32,000 nucleotides of DNA, taken from assembly GCF_021378375.1 (NCBI RefSeq), contig NZ_CP076228.1, forward strand, positions 960,001-992,000, written 5' to 3'. A program made the translations under genes and the position numbers. The notes beneath the pieces were generated by a model. The model was given only the letters and a program-made list of their open reading frames with translations, ran no database searches and was not told the DNA's origin. Within the stretch, counting starts at the first letter, position 1. Each line of letters opens with the position of its first letter. This document shows positions 2,792 to 17,546 of the stretch, in pieces. Source of the stretch: Wolbachia endosymbiont of Drosophila innubila. GTDB taxonomy: Bacteria; Pseudomonadota; Alphaproteobacteria; Rickettsiales; Anaplasmataceae.

Positions 2792-3958
2792 ATGGACAAA
2801 ATAATCATAAAAAAATTTGGTGGGACTTCGCTAACTGATTTAAACCGAGTTGCAAATTTGATAAAAAACGATATTGAGAAAGGTTGTAATGTAATCGTTG
2901 TTGTATCTGCTGTTGCAGGATTTACTGACCAAATGGTTTTTCAGGCTAGGCAAATCTCAAATTTAAGTTATAGACAAGAGTTATCAGAGTATGACGTTAT
3001 GCTTTCAGCAGGAGAACAAATCTCTTGCGGTCTATTAGCTATCACTCTCCAATCGATCGGAGTTAATGCTAAATCGTGGCTTGCCTGGCAGTTACCAATT
3101 GTAACTGATGATTTTTATTCTGAGTCTAAAATAAAAACAATAAAGATTGAACGTGTGAAAAGATCTTTTGCTGAGGGTTATACTGCTGCGATCATTGCTG
3201 GTTTTCAGGGTATAAATGATGATAGAATCACTACTTTTGGAAGAGGAGGCTCTGATATATCAGCAGTTGCCTTCGCGGTAGCCTTTGGTGTTAGAACTTG
3301 CGAAATTTTTACTGATATTGATGGAATATATACAGCAGACCCGAGAATTGTTCCAAAGGCACGCAAGCTCAAATTTATCTCTTACGATGAAATGTTGGAA
3401 ATGTCGTCATCTGGTGCTAAAATACTGCATAATCGTTCAGTACAACTTGCAATGAAACATAACATTAAAGTGCAAGTGCTATCCACTTTTAAGGAAGTAG
3501 AAGGCACCACAGTGCTACACAAAAGGGATGTACTAGAGAGATACTTAATTACTGGAATAACTTATAGCACTAATGAAGCTCTTGTAACTTTCACTAACCT
3601 TGCAAATAACTTGCGTACTTTAAGAGATATAGCAGGAGCAAACGTTAAAATTGATATGATACATGGGTCAAGTTTTGTTATCTCCAAATTTGATATTGAT
3701 TTAATGGAAAAGTTACTGAATAAGAATGAAAATTATGCTATAAACGATAATGTAGCTAAAATTTCAATAATTGGTATTGGTGTTATGTCTAACACTGAAG
3801 TGATGCACCGCACACTCAAGGTTTTAAGCGAAAAAAAGATAGAAATACTTGCTATCACAACATCTGAAATCAAAATCAGTATAATTGTTCAAAAAGAATG
3901 CGCTGTAGCTTTAGTCAAAGATTTACATACTGAGTATGAGCTTGATATGCAGCACTAG
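2792..3958 (+). CDS. lysC: Aspartate kinase (aspartokinase).
   Basis: The N-terminus IIIKKFGGTSL matches the kinase signature, FGRGGSD...FTDIDGIYTADPRIVP is present, and the C-terminus has ACT-like repeats. The start is placed at the Met preceding KIIIKKFGGTS (2792) rather than at the ORF-track start of 2726. Confidence 0.9.
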   Translation: MDKIIIKKFGGTSLTDLNRVANLIKNDIEKGCNVIVVVSAVAGFTDQMVFQARQISNLSYRQELSEYDVMLSAGEQISCGLLAITLQSIGVNAKSWLAWQLPIVTDDFYSESKIKTIKIERVKRSFAEGYTAAIIAGFQGINDDRITTFGRGGSDISAVAFAVAFGVRTCEIFTDIDGIYTADPRIVPKARKLKFISYDEMLEMSSSGAKILHNRSVQLAMKHNIKVQVLSTFKEVEGTTVLHKRDVLERYLITGITYSTNEALVTFTNLANNLRTLRDIAGANVKIDMIHGSSFVISKFDIDLMEKLLNKNENYAINDNVAKISIIGIGVMSNTEVMHRTLKVLSEKKIEILAITTSEIKISIIVQKECAVALVKDLHTEYELDMQH

Positions 3959-4049
3959 GATAGGCTTGACGTCCAGTTGTCTAAGAGTATGTCTTAAAAA
4001 GGAATGAGGAAAAAAATATGATAGTGTAAGTAAAAAATAGGAGGGAAAA

Positions 4050-4628
4050 TTGTATCCAAGTGATATAAGTGATAAGGAATGGGAAATTTTGGAGCCACAT
4101 GTTGCACAAGGAAAGATAGGGAGGCCAAGAAAGCACAATATCAGAACAATTATTAATGCAATAAGGTATATAATGAGAGGTGGTTGTCAATGGAGAATGC
4201 TGCCGAAAGATTTTCCTCCATGGAAGACGGTGTATGACTATTTTCTCAGGTGACGTAGTAATGGCAAATTGGAAAAAATACATAATATGCTAGTAAAAGA
4301 GGTAAGAAAAATGTTTGGTAAAAATGAAACACCTTCAGTAGGAATAATTGACAGTCAATCAGTAAAAACCACTCAAAAAGGGGATCCAGAGGATATGATG
4401 CTGAAAAAAAATAAAGGGTAGAAAACGTCATATTGTTGTAGATACAGTGGGCTTAATTATTGCGGCTGATGTTCATAGTGCAAGTGTTCAAGATCGTGAT
4501 GGTGCTCTAAATCTTTTCACTCAAGCTAAATACAAGGCTCCAACTTTACGTAAGTTTTTTGCTGATCAAGGATACATAGCAAAACCGCTGTTTATTGGAG
4601 ACAGGATACGATTACCAAGAAAGCTGTT
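4050..4628 (+). pseudogene. Decayed IS5-family transposase of a different lineage from ISWpi1. It has multiple frameshifts and is 3'-truncated.
   Basis: YPSDISDKEWEILEPHV...MRGGCQWRMLPKDFPPWKTVYDYF lies at 4050..4253. It continues in other frames with GIIDSQSVKTTQKG, KGRKRHIVVDTVGLIIAADVHSASVQDRDGA and FFADQGY. The homology then ends abruptly near 4600..4628. Confidence 0.7.
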
Positions 4629-5005
4629 GATGTTACAGGATTTTTCGACAATCTGGACCACAATTTAGCACTGCAGGCTATCAAGAAGCACACAGACTGC
4701 AAATGGGTCATACTGTATGTTGAAAGGTGGATGAAATCCCCTATTCAGCAAGCAGATGGCAGTAAGGTAGTTAGGGAAAAAAGGAGTTCCGCAAGGAGGT
4801 TCAATAAGCCCAATCATTTCAAACATATTTATGCACCATGCATTTGATATATGGATGAAACAAAATCACCCAACAGTACCATTTGAAAGATATGTGGATG
4901 ATGCGATAGTGCACTGCAGAACTAAAAGACAGGCAGAATTTATGCGAGCAGCAATTGAAGAAAGATTGGCATAATGTAAGCTAAAATTGCAACCTGATAC
5001 CAATG
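4629..5005 (+). pseudogene. Internal fragment of a group II intron reverse transcriptase (RT domains ~3-7). It has a frameshift and an in-frame stop.
   Basis: The translation reads DVTGFFDNLDHNLALQAIKKH...VVREK[frameshift]GVPQGGSISPIISNIFMHHAFDIWM...ERYVDDAIVHC...EERLA*CKLKLQPD. The RT motifs FFDN, PQGG and YxDD are present. The ORF start, the X/maturase domain and any ribozyme domains are absent. Confidence 0.7.
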
Positions 5006-5197
5006 CCATTCCAAAACTCCATCATTATACTGCCTTAGTATAACCTTCTCACTTCTATTGTCTATTTGTTTGTTATGTAATAGAAATTGGTATGAGATTG
5101 AAGAATTAAGTGTGAACGGTTACAGAATTTTTGCCAGGAGAAACATATAGTTAAAGTAATTCAGATTTGTAAGATATGTTTATCTGCAATTATAGCT

Positions 5198-7114
5198 TCA
5201 ACAGTAGGCAATGTTGCTTTTAATTACCTCAACATTTTCTCTTGGCAATTCTTTAATGAACCGAGAAGTGCGCATCGGTTGCCACTGGTTGTTAATTTCC
5301 CTCCTATCTGCACATGAAATGATTAACCTTTCTTTGGCTCTGGTTATGCCAACATATGCGAGTCTCCTTTCTTCTTCTAAAGCTTTACCACTTTTGTCAT
5401 CAAAAGATCTTTGATGAGGAAATAATCCCTCTTCCCAACCAGGTAGAAACACGCACGGGAATTCAAGTCCTTTGGCTGCATGAAGAGTCATAACATATAC
5501 GGTGTCATCGTTATTCATATTATCCACTTCCATCACCAGACTTATATGCTCCAAGAAAGTTGTGGCATTATCGAAATTTTTTAAAGATGAGATGAGCTCT
5601 TTAACATTTTCTATTCGTGCTAAGCCTGTTACCTCATCATTTTCAAGCATTTCAATATATCCTGATTGGTTTGCTACGATTTTAACGAATTCATGCAGTG
5701 GTTTTACGCTTACTATTTCTTCCCAAGCTTTAATTTTATTTAAAAAATCGTTGAGTGAGAGTTTAATTCTTTCGGTTACCTGATTACTATTAACTAATAT
5801 TTTTGCTGCCTCAAAAAAAGAAATTTTGTTATCCTGAGCAGTCGTGTATATTTTCTTTAGAGTTGTAGCTCCTATGCTTCTTTTTGGCCGATTTACTATC
5901 CTTTCGAAAGCTAAGTCATCGTTATTGTTTGTAACAAGTCTTAAATATGCAATTATATCCCTGACTTCCTGACGTTCGTAGAATTTTACGCCACTTATAA
6001 TCTTGTAGGGAATTGAATATTTTATAAAATACTCTTCGAGAACTCTAGTTTGAAAAGTGGCCCTTACCAGCACTGCAATGTCACTAAATCTGTATTTATT
6101 GAGTTTCAATATCTGTTCGCTTATGAACCTTGCTTCAGCTTTCCCATCCCATAATTTTATTAGATTTACCTTTTCCCCTTCAATGTTTGTTGTCCACAAT
6201 TTTTTTTCTAAGCGAGTCTTATTGTGATTGATAACATATGACGCAGTTGCAAGTATGTGAGGTGTTGACCTGTAGTTACACTCTAGTTTAACGGTTTTTG
6301 CATTTTTAAAATCATCAGAAAACTTCAAAATATTTTCAACTTCTGCACCACGCCAACTATATATCGACTGGTCATCATCTCCTACACAGCAAATATTTGA
6401 GTGCTCTTTTGCAAGGTATTTTAGCCAAAGATATTGTATCGCATTTGTATCTTGATATTCATCTACCATAACATATTTAAACTTGTTTTGGTAGTAGGGC
6501 AGAACTTCGGTCTTTTGATTAAAGAGCTGTATGTTATATAGCAATAAGTCACCAAAATCGACAGAATTAAGGAATTTCAACCTTTCCTGATACTGGTGAT
6601 AGACTTTGAGTGCAGTTACATATACTGGCCTAAATGATTGAATATCTTCCACTTCAGATGGCAATAAGCACTTCTCTTTCCATTGCTGAATAATATTCAT
6701 AATGGTCTTACATTTTTCTGATAGGTAATCAGGATTTATTTCATTGATAATATTTTTTATTACCTGTAATTGGTCATCCACACCAATGATTGTAAAATTG
6801 GGGTTTAAGCCCACAATTTCTGCGTGCAGGCGCAAGATTTTTGCTGCAATTGCATGGAAAGTGCCAAGCCATGGTATGTTTGTGCCCGTTAGCTCAAGTA
6901 CCCTTGATACCATCTCATTTGCTGCTTTATTTGTAAATGTAACTGCTAATATCTCATCAGAATAAGCGTGACCGTTTCTAATTATGTGTGCTATTCTTGA
7001 AGTAATCGTTCTTGTTTTTCCCGTCCCGGCTCCTGCCAGTATCAAAACTGGTCTATCTATGTTAGTTACAGCTGATTGTTGTTCTGGATTTAGCAGTGAG
7101 AGATAATCGTTCAT
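5198..7114 (-). CDS. uvrD: UvrD/Rep/PcrA-family (SF1) ATP-dependent DNA helicase.
   Basis: Walker A AGAGTGKT, motif II VDEYQDTN, and the motifs YRST, VLVR, TLHAAKGLEF and YVGITRAK all occur in the canonical order. Confidence 0.9.
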   Translation of the reverse strand: MNDYLSLLNPEQQSAVTNIDRPVLILAGAGTGKTRTITSRIAHIIRNGHAYSDEILAVTFTNKAANEMVSRVLELTGTNIPWLGTFHAIAAKILRLHAEIVGLNPNFTIIGVDDQLQVIKNIINEINPDYLSEKCKTIMNIIQQWKEKCLLPSEVEDIQSFRPVYVTALKVYHQYQERLKFLNSVDFGDLLLYNIQLFNQKTEVLPYYQNKFKYVMVDEYQDTNAIQYLWLKYLAKEHSNICCVGDDDQSIYSWRGAEVENILKFSDDFKNAKTVKLECNYRSTPHILATASYVINHNKTRLEKKLWTTNIEGEKVNLIKLWDGKAEARFISEQILKLNKYRFSDIAVLVRATFQTRVLEEYFIKYSIPYKIISGVKFYERQEVRDIIAYLRLVTNNNDDLAFERIVNRPKRSIGATTLKKIYTTAQDNKISFFEAAKILVNSNQVTERIKLSLNDFLNKIKAWEEIVSVKPLHEFVKIVANQSGYIEMLENDEVTGLARIENVKELISSLKNFDNATTFLEHISLVMEVDNMNNDDTVYVMTLHAAKGLEFPCVFLPGWEEGLFPHQRSFDDKSGKALEEERRLAYVGITRAKERLIISCADRREINNQWQPMRTSRFIKELPRENVEVIKSNIAYC

Positions 7115-13445: not shown

Positions 13446-14489
13446 GTGACCCCTGAGGGTTTTCATATTCATCATTACAAAAAAGTTTCAAGCACTAATA
13501 AAGAAGCGTTGGATTTAATTGATAAAGGAATATCAAATGAAACTATTATTGTTGCTGATAAACAAACAGAAGGCAGGGGGCGCACCGGAAAAAACTGGAT
13601 TTCTCCAGAGGGTAATTTTTATGCAAGTTTGGTAATAAACCTTTTTAACGATTATCTGAATGAAAGCCAGCTTTCGGTGTCATTCCAGCGCGTGACGCTG
13701 GAATCTAGAAATCAAGAAGAATGGTCAAGCACACAACTGTACAAACGTTGTGGTATTCCCACCAAGGATGATGTCATCCGAGTAGCCTGGCACTGGGATC
13801 CAGAAAACTTAATTACAAATGGGCACATCAGGCAACTGTGTAATAAGAACTGGATTCCAGTGTCACGCACTGGAATGACACCACATACCACCTGCAAATT
13901 GCAATGTTCGCATAGTTATGTGTCAAGCACTGGGGAAAATACTGGGATGATAGAAAGAGGTTTAATGAATCAAGTTAGCAAATTAACAGAATTGACTTTT
14001 GTTACTGCTCTTGCTGTTGGAAATGCTATACTGTCATTTATAAATGGTCTAAATCTCCAGTATAAATGGCCAAATGACATTCTAATCGATGGCAAGAAAA
14101 TAAGTGGAATATTGCTTGAAAAAAGATCCAATTCGAATTGGCTCATTATAGGAATTGGAATTAATGTCAGTCATGCACCACTTCCAGGAACAACGTGCAT
14201 TAGCAATTACGGTGAGTCTGTGTCTAACATAGATCTGTTAAAGAAATTAATAATAAATTTTAATAAGCTAAGAAAGCAATGGCTACTTGATGGGTTTTAT
14301 GCTATAAGAGAAATGTGGTTAAAAAAAGCATTCAAAATGAATGAGCAAATCAGTGTAAAGTTAGCTGACAAATTGTATGAAGGAATTTTTGCTGATATAG
14401 ATAAAAGTGGTAAATTGGTGTTGCAGCAAAAGGATGGAAGCTTAATTTATTTTGATGTAGGTGAGTTATTTATTGATAATGCATTATGA
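13446..14489 (+). CDS. birA: Biotin-[acetyl-CoA-carboxylase] ligase (group I BirA, no HTH domain) carrying a ~100-codon in-frame repeat insertion. GTG start.
   Basis: The biotin-binding signature QTEGRGRTGKNWISPEGNFYAS is present, followed by KWPNDILIDGKKISGILLE and the C-terminal domain. The segment SVSFQRV...GMIERG between them is encoded by hairpin repeats. Confidence 0.85.
   Translation: MTPEGFHIHHYKKVSSTNKEALDLIDKGISNETIIVADKQTEGRGRTGKNWISPEGNFYASLVINLFNDYLNESQLSVSFQRVTLESRNQEEWSSTQLYKRCGIPTKDDVIRVAWHWDPENLITNGHIRQLCNKNWIPVSRTGMTPHTTCKLQCSHSYVSSTGENTGMIERGLMNQVSKLTELTFVTALAVGNAILSFINGLNLQYKWPNDILIDGKKISGILLEKRSNSNWLIIGIGINVSHAPLPGTTCISNYGESVSNIDLLKKLIINFNKLRKQWLLDGFYAIREMWLKKAFKMNEQISVKLADKLYEGIFADIDKSGKLVLQQKDGSLIYFDVGELFIDNAL
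13670..13965. repeat. Composite palindromic repeat of the same family as 2431..2700, in opposite orientation, lying inside the birA reading frame.
   Basis: Hairpins lie at 13675..13704 (ggtgtcattCCAGCGcgtgaCGCTGGaatc) and 13853..13882 (gattCCAGTGtcacgCACTGGaatgacacc). Outer arms are ctgtacaaacgttg (~13737) and aatgttcgcatagttatg (~13903). The encoded peptide VIRVAWHWDPENLI...NWIPVSRTGMTP...QCSHSY is collinear with the minus-strand ORF 2444..2650 (VIPVPRHWDPEDLI...GWIPVPSTGMTP...QCSYSY). Confidence 0.8.
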
Positions 14490-14999: not shown

Positions 15000-15071
15000 A
15001 TTCCTTAACCTGGCTGTATTGAAACGGTATGTAGAGAGAGTCACAGCCTAGAGACTATTACTCTTTCCAGT

Positions 15072-15446
15072 TTAACCCCAATCTGGTTCATTAATGGTAT
15101 TGTTTTCTAATTCCTCTACTTTTGTCTGTAAGTTATTCAGGCTCTGTACTAAACCACTATTTTCATTACCAACCTTTGTAATTAGCTCGTCAAGCTTACT
15201 CCTTTCTTCTGTTAGCATGTCATTTAATTGACTGATAGAGTTGCTATTGTTATGCAATACATCATCCAATTCAGGAACGAATTTCGTGTTCAGCTCTGCG
15301 ATTAATTTATCTAAAGCTTTGTGGACATAACCAAGCTGCGCTGGATTTCGCGCAACTGTTTCATCATAACCTTTAGGTTTGGTGTTAACTTCTATTTTGC
15401 TTATTACTTTAAGTTCGTTTTTGCTTTCTTGTTTACTATTATTCAT
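15072..15446 (-). CDS. Orphan coiled-coil-like protein (124 aa), paralogue of the 161-aa neighbour.
   Basis: LGYVHKALDKLIAELN followed by an N/S/L/E-rich helical segment is collinear with ITYLKKVYDGLIDSIN... in 15544..16029. The two genes share homologous 3' flanks and the same RBS context. Confidence 0.6.
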   Translation of the reverse strand: MNNSKQESKNELKVISKIEVNTKPKGYDETVARNPAQLGYVHKALDKLIAELNTKFVPELDDVLHNNSNSISQLNDMLTEERSKLDELITKVGNENSGLVQSLNNLQTKVEELENNTINEPDWG

Positions 15447-15543
15447 GCTAACTCCTATAAAAAATTATAATTTTAAAATCAATTCAGCTACATTGAAGTG
15501 GTATGTGGAAAGAGTAACAGCTAGCAAGCTATTACCTTTTTTA

Positions 15544-16029
15544 TTAAAGCAACCCGTTCTCTTCGCCAGTAGCATGAGGGAATATGGAAGCTTCTGCAAT
15601 GCCTGGCTGATCATCACGAAATTCCTGAAGCTCATCTCGAAGAGTTTGAAGTTGACTTTTTATTTCAGTTGTATTGTTCCCTATATTTGATATAGTTGTT
15701 GACAGTGGCTCCACTATGCCAGTTGTAATGTTACTGCTTAAACTTGTGTTATACTCATTAATACTGTCTATCAAGCCATCATAAACCTTTTTAAGGTATG
15801 TTATAGCTGCGGCTGTTTGCTTCATTTCCGCTATAGGTATTTTTTCCAGTGGCTGATTTATATCAAAATCTAACTCCTTAGCACCTTTTTCTTTATTCTG
15901 AATTTTTACTGAATCTATACTTGGTTTTACAAAATCTGGTTTTGTAAAAACCGGGCTCTCAAGTTTTAGTAATTTACTTTGGTCTGAAGGCTCGTCACCA
16001 AAATATAATTCTACATTGTTTTTACTCAT
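15544..16029 (-). CDS. Orphan coiled-coil-like protein (161 aa) with a C-terminal DDQPGIAEA motif.
   Basis: The upstream sequence on the minus strand is TATAGGAGGTAACTTATTATG, with an AGGAGG Shine-Dalgarno. It is a paralogue of 15072..15446. It shares the PGIAEA motif with the upstream 491-aa protein, encoded by an identical 17-nt string. Confidence 0.65.
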   Translation of the reverse strand: MSKNNVELYFGDEPSDQSKLLKLESPVFTKPDFVKPSIDSVKIQNKEKGAKELDFDINQPLEKIPIAEMKQTAAAITYLKKVYDGLIDSINEYNTSLSSNITTGIVEPLSTTISNIGNNTTEIKSQLQTLRDELQEFRDDQPGIAEASIFPHATGEENGLL

Positions 16030-16070
16030 AATAAGTTACCTCCTATAAAAAAATTGATTTTCATAAATTG

Positions 16071-17546
16071 CTACCATACAAGTAGCATTGAATCGTTATT
16101 GTTTTCTACTATTGTAAAATCTGGAGCTTCTGCAATGCCTGGCATATCGTCCTTGATTTGCTTGAGCATCTCAATCATTTCCTTGTTCTGTTTACTCTGC
16201 TCGTCAAGTTTCCCTTTTAATGCATCAATAATAGCTTTAGACTGATCTTGATTGCTGAGATCACCGATCACAGCTGTCACTTTCTCATAAGGCAGTTTGT
16301 GAATGATGTCTTTAAGCTCTTCTGCGCCTACGTTATCCAAAAGTTCTTTAAACTGCTCATTAGACATATTGCGAGCAAAAGCTTGAAGTTTGTCTGGGTT
16401 GTCAACTAAAGACTTAATGATAATCTGAATCTTATTAGAATCAGTTAAATCCTGAGCAATTGCTTCGAGTTTCTCAGGATCAAGCTTATTAACTAAGTCT
16501 TTCAGTTGTTCTTCTTGCAGACTATTTACTAAAGCTTTCAACTGATCACCTTCTAATTCTTTGGAGAGTATTGTCAAGTGGTGCTCAGCCAAGTCTTTTG
16601 CAAGCACTGTAAATTGCTCGTCATTTAAAGTTTTAATAAGTGCTTTGAACTGATCCACTTTTAAGTGAGGTAAAATTTCTTTTACTTGCTCTGAATTTAA
16701 TTTTCTCACTAGAGCTTCAAGCTGAGTATCATTTAAAATAGGAACAATTATTTGTAACTTTTCTGGATTTAGTTCCTGAGCGAGGGTTTTTAGCTGGTGA
16801 TTGGTTAGATGATCCACTAAAGCTTGGAGTTGTTCATCTGTTAAGTTCTCTGCTAAGGCCTGCAACTGGCTTGAGCTCAGTTCAGGAATTATTTTTTGCA
16901 GTTGCTCGTTACTAAGAGTATTGGCAAGAGTTTTTAGTTGGCCGTCTGTTAGGCCCTGAATAAAAACTTTAGTAAACGCGTTTGATAGCAACAGTAGCAC
17001 ATCTCTTATATGTCTCTCACCGTAGTATAACATAATGTCTTGTAATACCTCATTGTCAGGTGAATCGATTATATTTCCTGCCTCGTCTGAAAAATAATAT
17101 TTATTGTTGCCAGTATCTGAATCTTCCCATGTTACATATTTGTATTCCAATTTTTTTGATTTAATAGAACTGCTACACATAGTTTTGAAAGGCTGCACAA
17201 GCTCTCTTGTATATGATAACTTAGCCAACTCATTACCGTAATATACAAATGTATGGTTACTTTTTACATAATCTAAGTTAGAATCACTTTTATAATCTTT
17301 GGCTACCAGATTTCCTTCATTTTCTTCCTCCAGACATATGTAACTGTCTAGGCAAGAACTGCTGCAAAGTTTTATAGGCAATAAGCCTAGTACTACATCG
17401 TTTTTATCATCCAGCGATACAAGCTCAACTTTTTTAATAGGCATTGTAGGATCATTACCTTCAGGCCACTTTATCCTTGTAGTCGGGGTTTTTCTAAACA
17501 CCTCTTTTCCAGGTATCATCTTAAAAACATGCTTTTTTCCACTCAT
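16071..17546 (-). CDS. Orphan protein (~491 aa). It has an unknown N-terminal ~200-aa domain, about 20 tandem 12-residue helical repeats (LxxEQLxxLxxx) and a C-terminal DDMPGIAEA motif.
   Basis: This is a long uninterrupted ORF. The start is placed at the first ATG (MSGKKHVF, 17546); the ORF-track start at 17558 is a TTG. Repeat periodicity is visible in the protein from LTDGQLKTLANT to LSNQDQSKAIIDA. Confidence 0.75.
   Translation of the reverse strand: MSGKKHVFKMIPGKEVFRKTPTTRIKWPEGNDPTMPIKKVELVSLDDKNDVVLGLLPIKLCSSSCLDSYICLEEENEGNLVAKDYKSDSNLDYVKSNHTFVYYGNELAKLSYTRELVQPFKTMCSSSIKSKKLEYKYVTWEDSDTGNNKYYFSDEAGNIIDSPDNEVLQDIMLYYGERHIRDVLLLLSNAFTKVFIQGLTDGQLKTLANTLSNEQLQKIIPELSSSQLQALAENLTDEQLQALVDHLTNHQLKTLAQELNPEKLQIIVPILNDTQLEALVRKLNSEQVKEILPHLKVDQFKALIKTLNDEQFTVLAKDLAEHHLTILSKELEGDQLKALVNSLQEEQLKDLVNKLDPEKLEAIAQDLTDSNKIQIIIKSLVDNPDKLQAFARNMSNEQFKELLDNVGAEELKDIIHKLPYEKVTAVIGDLSNQDQSKAIIDALKGKLDEQSKQNKEMIEMLKQIKDDMPGIAEAPDFTIVENNNDSMLLVW

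Follow-up and report, generated by a model that had tools for sequence, protein, structure and literature searches.

The 32,000-nt stretch of DNA analyzed here (the window) covers positions 960,001 to 992,000 of contig NZ_CP076228.1, from the Wolbachia endosymbiont of Drosophila innubila. This DNA is wMel-like, and it contains the genes WD0975, WD0974 and WD0973 of wMel, which form an operon located between tRNA-Ala/nuoF and ccmE. The locus is a genus-restricted operon that encodes one large protein (WD0975) and one to three small paralogues (here WD0974 and WD0973). A short motif at the junction between the last helix and the tail of the large protein is matched by the adjacent small protein, and in close relatives the tail of the large gene and the first small gene are replaced together as one cassette. 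Judged from these comparisons, the chances are about even that the matched motif serves at the C-terminus as a cognate recognition element particular to each strain, used either for co-assembly of the two proteins or for shared recognition.

Junction motifs of the large and small proteins are matched within each genome

The three genes were found on the minus strand, with the spacing of 41 and 97 bp that a preliminary description of this DNA had given: WD0975 at 16071-17546 (491 aa; 100% identical to P0007, P0011 and WD_0975), WD0974 at 15544-16029 (161 aa; 99% to P0001), which encodes an acidic small coiled-coil protein of pI 4.58, and WD0973 at 15072-15446 (124 aa; 100% to P0127), which encodes a small coiled-coil paralogue. 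The 41-bp spacer (16030-16070) contains a ribosome-binding-site context at 16040-16052, and the 97-bp spacer (15447-15543) contains a hairpin, a box and a second such context.

The preliminary description had pointed to a C-terminal PGIAEA motif in WD0975 and WD0974, encoded by an identical 17-nt string, and this was confirmed in full. CCAGGCATTGCAGAAGC occurs exactly twice in the window, at 15590-15606 and 16126-16142 (0 expected in shuffled sequences), and it sits in a 19-nt identity with 24 of 27 nt matching overall. PGIAEA was located at 16125-16142 (minus strand) in WD0975, where it forms residues 469-474 directly after the last helix and is followed by the tail PDFTIVENNNDSMLLVW (encoded by 16074-16124, minus strand), and at 15589-15606 (minus strand) in WD0974; it lies 17 and 14 residues from the respective C-termini. 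Since all six PGIAEA codons are identical in the wMel pair (6/6; p ~0.004 from codon usage alone), a recent exchange is suggested, and the 19-nt identity would accordingly be read as a trace of recent recombination or gene conversion. Read by eye, WD0975 and WD0974 have hydrophobic residues at the same positions (-5, -8, -12 and -19 from the junction proline), which gives the two helices a common heptad register.

To place the motif among other Wolbachia, including supergroup A and B strains, 21 related loci were collected, of which L001-L011 came from a genome scan and L012-L021 from an exact-protein look-up. These loci repeat the arrangement of one big gene with one to three small genes after it, and the context from thrS-infC-nuoF/tRNA to ccmE-birA-nuoN is kept in many of them (including L001-L003, L012-L017 and L020); L018 retains the ccmE side only, and L019 lies in a different context. 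The C-terminal motif proved to be a real one that is kept in orthologues: about 10 classes of sequence follow the last helix in different strains, yet within a genome the big protein and its adjacent small protein carry the same class. With the big protein named first, the pairs are PGIAEAP and PGIAEAS in wMel (the window), PDIGQAP and PDIGEAP in L002 and L006, PEIGQAP and PEIGEAP in L004, PGFLEAP in both proteins of L021, PGTFEA and PGSFES in L018, MLPE(Q/E)SEA and MLPEEAP in L001 and L003, DDGSIVDPNN and DDIIDPNA in L007, DMPY in both proteins of L013, DIVNPNQF and DITNPNTF in L014, EDINIDEEGWQAP and EDIDIDQDEWTAP in L015, DGWHAPYFRGTDTEL and DSWEAPQLKGADDEF in L020, PPPMDSP and PPPMDTP in L016, and the non-contiguous parts LPT + DLDDMF and LPT + ILDDMF in L019.

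For a permutation test, the C-terminal 35 residues of big and small proteins from 18 loci were aligned by Smith-Waterman. Pairs from the same genome had a mean score of 39.7 and permuted pairs one of 23.2 +/- 1.9, and none of 10000 permutations scored as high; in 12 of the 18 loci the own small gene was the best of the 18 candidates. At identical residues, the codons were the same in 82 of 155 cases over all pairs (53%; 0.44 expected, p=0.015), and several motifs contain many synonymous differences (same codons in 3/9 for L007, 4/10 for L016 and 4/10 for L002). Given these differences, the match outside wMel is mostly old and maintained at the protein level.

The match is limited to the junction, and the distal ends are lineage-specific: almost every WD0974-like protein ends in ...TGEENGLL, for instance, and the big proteins end in ...DFTIVDINNDSLLFV. 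The type of the small protein tracks the tail class of the big one: PxI[GA]xAP tails are found with WD0974-like proteins and WxAP tails with WD0973-like proteins, the remaining classes pair with a third small type, and the DMPY tail of L013 pairs with a short WD0974-like protein.

The large-protein tail and the first small gene are exchanged as one cassette

The variable cassette was located at 15545-16175 (minus strand), where it comprises the 3' end of WD0975 (the end of the last helix and the tail) and all of WD0974. Breakpoints were mapped by blastn of the window against the supergroup-A relatives L012-L015. In all four, an identity of 97-98.7% extends from upstream through WD0975 and ends at window 16140-16175, and these left breakpoints coincide with the codons of the terminal helix and the junction. 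The alignment picks up again near 15545 in L014, from ~15539 with 81% identity in L012, and inside the hairpin/box region between WD0974 and WD0973 in L013 and L015 (15521-15535; 96-98%); the ccmE side is 93-96% identical in all of L012-L015. In L014, a 629-nt segment of wMel holding the WD0975 tail and the whole of WD0974 is swapped for 554 unrelated nt, which encode a different tail and a 104-aa partner with a matching motif. At least six tail classes are carried on big-protein bodies that are more than 91% identical.

A further product of exchange was observed in L013 and L015, where residues 1-87 of WD0973 are fused at a shared KLDE to a WD0975-type C-terminus to give a 128-aa chimera. This chimera is followed by a 147-aa WD0974-like gene with a matching motif (MPGIAEAP versus IPDIGEAP), and the two form a displaced 'orphan' tail/partner pair that has stayed downstream. 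The locus could be used as a marker for recombination between co-infecting strains.

Several copies of the locus are disrupted. The big gene is fragmented in L009 (wStur; 5374-7039), L010 (wMoz; 592-1990) and L011 (Paracimex Wolbachia; 6165-6830), remnants of the small genes persist there, and the locus appears to be decaying in these lineages. In the second wStri copy of the locus (L005, span 3645-6612; the first copy is L004), the big gene is split into ORFs 3645-4190 and 5944-6612 by a 408-aa reverse-transcriptase-like ORF (4724-5950), probably a group II intron insertion. Upstream of the first wStri copy, a long tandem repeat (L004 3136-4968) yields, when translated, many ...KVSEVRFVRLPLAKAFAPSSPILL... 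copies inside ORFs of 220 and 340 aa.

A model of cognate tail recognition

In the favored model, the C-terminal helix of the large protein and that of its small partner form a parallel, in-register coiled coil, which would be hetero-oligomeric. The identical junction motifs of the two proteins would then lie next to each other and make a pseudo-symmetric contact, which would explain selection of the same residues in both partners. Selection would keep the pairs matched, recombination would move matched pairs as cassettes, and, going by the published RNA-seq data, the complex would be produced chiefly in post-embryonic stages, with the highest level in adult males. The 'partner recognition' part of the earlier interpretation is viable.

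Several points weigh against this model. The confidence of the AlphaFold2 model of the whole WD0975 protein was modest (predicted local distance difference test, pLDDT, 71.7; predicted template modeling score, pTM, 0.40), and the tail was predicted to be disordered. The match between big and small proteins is weak in several pairs (L012, L017 and L018), and the strains are phylogenetically related, so that the loci are not fully independent. Matched motifs could equally reflect binding of both proteins to one external ligand, or common ancestry with independent purifying selection on each copy could keep the motifs alike. Likewise, the joint replacement of tail and partner could reflect where the conserved recombination arms are placed, without functional coupling.

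Alternative explanations of the matched motif

In the preliminary description, a C-terminal tag shared by otherwise different proteins was taken to suggest a secretion signal. The corresponding explanation, in which the shared module directs export by a type I or rvh type IV system and the three proteins are co-secreted effectors, was judged to be unlikely. An export signal would suit the extreme C-terminal position of the module, the disordered tail behind an amphipathic helix and the hydrophobic last residues, as well as genus-specific, fast-evolving proteins with a eukaryote-like alpha-solenoid. All three proteins are acidic (pI 4.6-4.9) and contain 0 to 4 cysteines, and an acidic, cysteine-poor composition is typical of substrates of the type I secretion system (T1SS). 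A rise in expression after embryogenesis is also seen for the T1SS genes WD0649 and WD0770 (PMC4683655). However, when a profile of the helix-motif-tail module was searched against 1.84 billion representative proteins, 10 matches were obtained. Eight belonged to this locus, being fragments from the C-terminus of big-family proteins, the chimera or WD0974-like proteins, and two were repeat or coiled-coil noise; no other type of protein with this tail was present among these representatives. Because the profile retrieved only the families of its own locus, the module is not a tag common to unrelated proteins. Nor are the three proteins otherwise different, given that the small ones are paralogues and the C-terminus of the big one aligns with WD0974 and recombines with WD0973.

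The sequence of the tails also argues against an export tag. Secretion machineries are conserved across Wolbachia, whereas the junction motif is hypervariable (~10 classes) between strains, and a degenerate signal would not require a match between the big and small proteins of each genome. C-terminal signals of the VirB/VirD4 type are positively charged; the tails are strongly acidic (net charge -4 to -7 in the 30 C-terminal residues) and lack the positively charged C-terminus by which type IV effectors, whose translocation depends on VirD4, are recognized. The acidic pI and the disordered tail would be compatible with a type I substrate, but the residues LDAVTSIF are not enriched in the last 30 positions (0.40-0.53, versus 0.47-0.54 in the whole proteins) and GGxGxD (RTX) repeats are absent from the proteins. 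The three locus tags were not found in the searchable effector-screen literature. A generic type IV or type I secretion tag, as first proposed, is not supported by a tail that is confined to one locus family; secretion as such may still occur.

Neutral concerted evolution, in which the motif and the flanks are the footprint of gene conversion and the match has no function, was judged to be quite unlikely. It would account for the 19-nt identity and the six identical codons in wMel, for the formation of chimeras at the KLDE microhomology and for the tandem arrangement of paralogues with common flanks. In most other strains, however, different codons are used (53% the same against 44% expected), and the match involves the junction alone while the distal tails and the helices differ, which is not the pattern of homogenization of the whole 3' end. 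Moreover, the identical tracts are shorter than the ~25 bp of identity that RecA recombination usually needs.

An equally doubtful explanation is that the motif is a short linear motif on both proteins, which binds one host target that varies with the host. The tails are disordered and acidic, their diversification is strain-specific, and several lineages (L009-L011), among them the strain wMoz from a filarial nematode, have lost or pseudogenized the locus. Some motif classes also seem, by eye, to resemble eukaryotic linear motifs, namely LPPPVY (PPxY-like), NPNxF and D/E-F-x-x-I/V; such likenesses are, however, degenerate. Secretion of the proteins is not evidenced, and the motif classes are too unlike one another for a single conserved host domain.

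That the identical 19 nt form a nucleotide-level element, such as the common target of an antisense non-coding RNA, is scarcely credible in spite of the exact identity in wMel, the antisense transcript at the 3' end of WD0974 (PMC4683655) and a plus-strand TATAAT box with a hairpin and U-run at 15466-15545, because in other strains the amino-acid match is kept with synonymous differences, which show no nucleotide-level constraint on the motif; a reading of it as an RNA target was rejected on this ground.

Structure and annotation of WD0975

The Pfam domain MgtE_N (PF03448) was matched by WD0975 in three stretches (61.3 bits, gathering cutoff 25.9, E=1.4e-16), and this match rests on a 12-residue helical repeat. 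The protein has more than 139 homologues, whose named sources, among the matches listed, are Wolbachia or arthropod assemblies that evidently contain Wolbachia DNA; with all three genes kept across the genus, the earlier label of 'orphan' cluster does not apply. MgtE transporters consist of the N-domain, a tandem CBS pair and the five-helix MgtE transmembrane domain. No CBS pair or MgtE transmembrane domain was found in WD0975 by the Pfam search, and for this reason it is not an MgtE transporter; identification as an MgtE Mg2+ transporter was rejected with PF03448 as the only domain matched. The names 'magnesium transporter', 'CorA' and MgtE given to the big family by several sources are misleading. 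As had been noted before, no transmembrane helix or catalytic motif was found in the three proteins, and no hydrophobic segment was seen in them (maximum KD19 hydropathy 1.23).

A whole-protein AlphaFold2 model was built on a 27-sequence alignment. The predicted parts, all encoded on the minus strand, are a beta-rich N-terminal domain (residues 1-155, ~17082-17546), an alpha-solenoid (residues 189-427, ~16266-16982) of about 20 helices with the 12-residue repeat LxxEQLxxLxxx, a long C-terminal helix (residues 433-467, 16146-16250) and a disordered acidic end (residues 471-491). When modeled alone, the N-terminal domain was predicted with confidence (pTM 0.79), and this model had no significant fold match in the PDB or among viral structures. 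The repeat region was modeled as a right-handed stack of short helices. Its likeness to ARM and PUF solenoids was weak, given that Foldseek E-values of ~1e-4 came with TM-scores of just 0.1-0.3 and root-mean-square deviations of 13-19 A; the repeat unit is one 12-residue helix, compared with the 2-3-helix unit of ARM, PUF and HEAT repeats. A profile search of the big family recovered no sequence relative in the PDB with E < 0.1.

Three candidate starts of WD0975 were noted: TTG at 17558 (495 aa), ATG at 17546 (491 aa, the current NCBI model) and the original wMel start (476 aa, P0029). No Shine-Dalgarno-like sequence was found before any of the three, whereas both small genes have a strong AGGAG.

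Paralogy of the small proteins

Searches of the small proteins with Pfam, NCBIfam and PHROGs gave just sub-threshold coiled-coil matches (Baculo_PEP_C, FliT and LegC2/C7), which were treated as compositional, and a known family was rejected for them. WD0974 and WD0973 had been described as collinear paralogues. Tandem paralogy, with a segmental duplication that includes the flanks, was upheld, but the pairwise evidence is weak (BLASTP E=0.24; hhalign probability 15-28%, E 6e-4 to 2e-3), and a direct comparison of the two was set aside as sole proof of paralogy. A bridge is provided by the third small-protein type, which occupies the same position in other strains and connects both families: it aligned with the WD0973 family at an hhalign probability of 96.9% (E 1.6e-10) and with the WD0974 family at 56% (E 1e-4). 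Several ORFs match both families. With this bridging family, the dual-matching ORFs, the synteny and the shared flanks, it is reasonable to regard WD0973 and WD0974 as paralogues.

By eye, every small type carries the helix motifs YVxKxΦDxLΦxxΦN and ΦG(N/D)xxxGΦxxxΦxxL, and the C-terminal helix and tail of the big protein align collinearly with those of WD0974. Like the big protein, the small ones close with a helix, a junction motif that starts with proline and a brief acidic tail whose end is hydrophobic. The WD0974 family has a conserved end (...TGEENGLL). The tail of WD0973 reads ...NEPDWG and its relatives end in ...EWEAPTHSDIL or ...DEWTAPTHPDIL; from this comparison, the wMel WD0973 looks like a truncated orphan of the W-x-A-P tail class.

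Flanking elements of the small genes

Homology of the 3' flanks and a common upstream context of the two small genes, both proposed earlier, were borne out. In the window, TTTTTTATAGGAG was found only at 15452-15464 and 16040-16052, before the two small genes, and at least two matches were seen in 1 of 100 shuffles; the 3' flanks align over ~50 nt with a local score of 45, whereas shuffled sequences reached 28 at most. This common flank is an element specific to the locus, made up of a hairpin followed by a box, ACATACCATTTCAATATAGC. In the spacer between WD0974 and WD0973, the terminator-like hairpin lies at 15509-15539 and the conserved box ACATACCACTTCAATGTAGC at 15487-15506 (minus strand). 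The 3' flank of WD0973 (15013-15069, minus strand), which faces the convergent ccmE, contains the second copy of each, with the hairpin at 15032-15069 and the box at 15013-15032. The box ACATACCATTTCAATATAGC was found 20 times in the 235 kb examined, each time after a small gene of the locus. Conservation extends to the hairpin stem, where 4 of the 11 pairs show compensatory changes, and the hairpin/box element is the right edge of the exchanged cassette.

A Rho-independent terminator has a G+C-rich stem-loop and, behind it, a U-run on the transcribed strand. A sense-strand U-run follows the hairpin in some strains (L013 and L014). In wMel, the sense side has a pyrimidine run only, and a U6 run lies on the opposite strand. 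Owing to an A-run before the hairpin after WD0974-type genes, the element reads as a terminator on the opposite strand too, and this reading faces ccmE when a WD0974-type gene is the last one. Read counts per nt are alike for the three wMel genes (PMC4683655), so the hairpin does not seem to be an efficient terminator in wMel.

On the plus strand, a perfect TATAAT (15466-15471) is followed further along by the hairpin with its U6 run (...CCUUUUUUAUU, ending at ~15545). These could delimit an antisense small RNA of ~60 nt, and this candidate may relate to the unannotated antisense RNA that PMC4683655 describes for the 3' end of WD0974. A candidate sigma-70-like promoter was located at 17623-17651 (minus strand; TCTACA-17-TACAAT), ~77 nt upstream of the WD0975 ATG, by consensus match only; promoter-like sites in the region do not exceed shuffle expectation in total.

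Expression and previous descriptions of the operon

The published wMel coordinates (WD0973, 932223-932597; WD0974, 932695-933180; WD0975, 933222-934652; PMC4683655) fit the window at an offset of 917151, which places 932223-934652 at window 15072-17501. A shorter WD0975 model is used in that study, and the 491-aa ORF reaches window 17546. Co-transcription, for which a check of RNA-seq data had been suggested, is already published: WD0973-WD0975 is the showcase co-transcribed operon of Gutzwiller et al. 2015, near-silent in embryos and with peak expression in adult males by RNA-seq (PMC4683655). The WD0973/WD0974 spacer is among the predicted highly conserved intergenic regions of Woolfit et al. 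2015 (PMC4349823), and a mosquito-ovary proteome includes a Wolbachia protein labelled 'MgtE intracellular N domain'.

The locus and its expression are thus already known, and no function is assigned by PMC4683655 or PMC4349823; likewise, a search of the accessible literature turned up no functional assignment for WD0973-WD0975. In neither of these papers was a description found of the paralogy, of the matching between junction motifs, of the classes of tail or of the cassette exchange, and the matched tails, the cassette behavior and the correction of the Mg-transporter label were not found in the searchable literature. WD0973-WD0975 is among the few Wolbachia operons with strong sex- and stage-dependent expression. 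Few host-interaction factors of Wolbachia have been characterized, and a tail module that is matched within genomes, polymorphic between strains, moved as a cassette and no general secretion tag provides testable hypotheses for this operon.

Neighboring elements

No blastn match to the locus was found among 50,697 phage records, and the PHROG search returned just weak coiled-coil matches, all with E >= 0.003; with a stable synteny in addition, an origin from prophage WO was rejected.

The birA ORF (13446-14489, plus strand) contains an in-frame insertion of ~58 codons at 13752-13900, which coincides with a match to Rfam WsnRNA46 (84.8 bits). The BirA protein has 347 aa here and in L013; in L012, L014, L015 and L017 it has 289-297 aa, and in L016 and L020 its length is 240-243 aa. 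By its Rfam match, the insert is classed as a Wolbachia repeat/small RNA element inside a housekeeping coding sequence, and in sitting within a coding sequence it resembles the Rickettsia palindromic elements. A second WsnRNA46 at 2505-2644 exceeded the gathering threshold whichever strand was read (80.4 and 69.9 bits), which indicates that the element is palindromic.

A group II intron lies at 18061-19942 (minus strand), just upstream of tRNA-Ala (17759-17834) and the operon, with Rfam matches to D1-D4 at 19710-19942 and to domain V/VI at 18061-18159. Its reverse-transcriptase ORF is in three pieces (19159-19482, 18947-19171 and 18171-18977), so the intron-encoded protein looks frameshifted.

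Comparison with known systems

The solenoid of WD0975 can be compared with the ARM-like repeats of the MgtE_N/FliG type, for which it passes the Pfam score and shows a weak fold likeness to ARM and PUF proteins. It differs from MgtE in having about 20 simple 12-residue repeats together with an unrelated beta domain and a coiled-coil tail.

Type I substrates of Ehrlichia carry an uncleaved, LDAVTSIF-rich C-terminal signal, and RTX GGxGxD repeats are often found in T1SS substrates, whose export depends on ABC, MFP and TolC components. The Ehrlichia tandem repeat proteins and Ank200, which have type I signals, are acidic repeat proteins with an unstructured C-terminal end, as are the proteins described here; the present tails differ in lacking LDAVTSIF enrichment and in carrying a locus-restricted motif.

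Polymorphic toxin loci, such as those of contact-dependent inhibition (CdiA-CT/CdiI) and Rhs (Rhs-CT/RhsI), have a similar evolutionary pattern, with a conserved big body, a sharply bounded variable C-terminus, an adjacent small gene that is exchanged along with it and downstream orphan pairs with a pre-variable stub. The variable part here, in contrast, is a disordered tail of 20-40 residues with no toxin domain or family match, the small partner is a paralogue with the same motif and not an unrelated immunity protein, and the locus has neither a delivery domain nor a signal peptide. The resemblance is confined to evolutionary dynamics, and the features of a toxin and of an immunity protein are both lacking.

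In the cifA/cifB operon, adjacent products pair cognately by strain and expression matters in males. The present locus is similar in being a Wolbachia-specific polymorphic operon with male-relevant expression and, as proposed here, cognate pairing of adjacent products; it differs in having no sequence or domain relationship to cifA/cifB and in being chromosomal, whereas cif belongs to the prophage. By analogy with such systems, it might be imagined that the solenoid and its small partners constitute a matched-tail code that is reset by cassettes and acts on the host in males, although this extension was considered very unlikely. If true, the operon would be a second two-component host-manipulation module in Wolbachia, chromosomal, polymorphic and built from short linear tails, with a logic like that of CifA/CifB or of toxin/immunity pairs.

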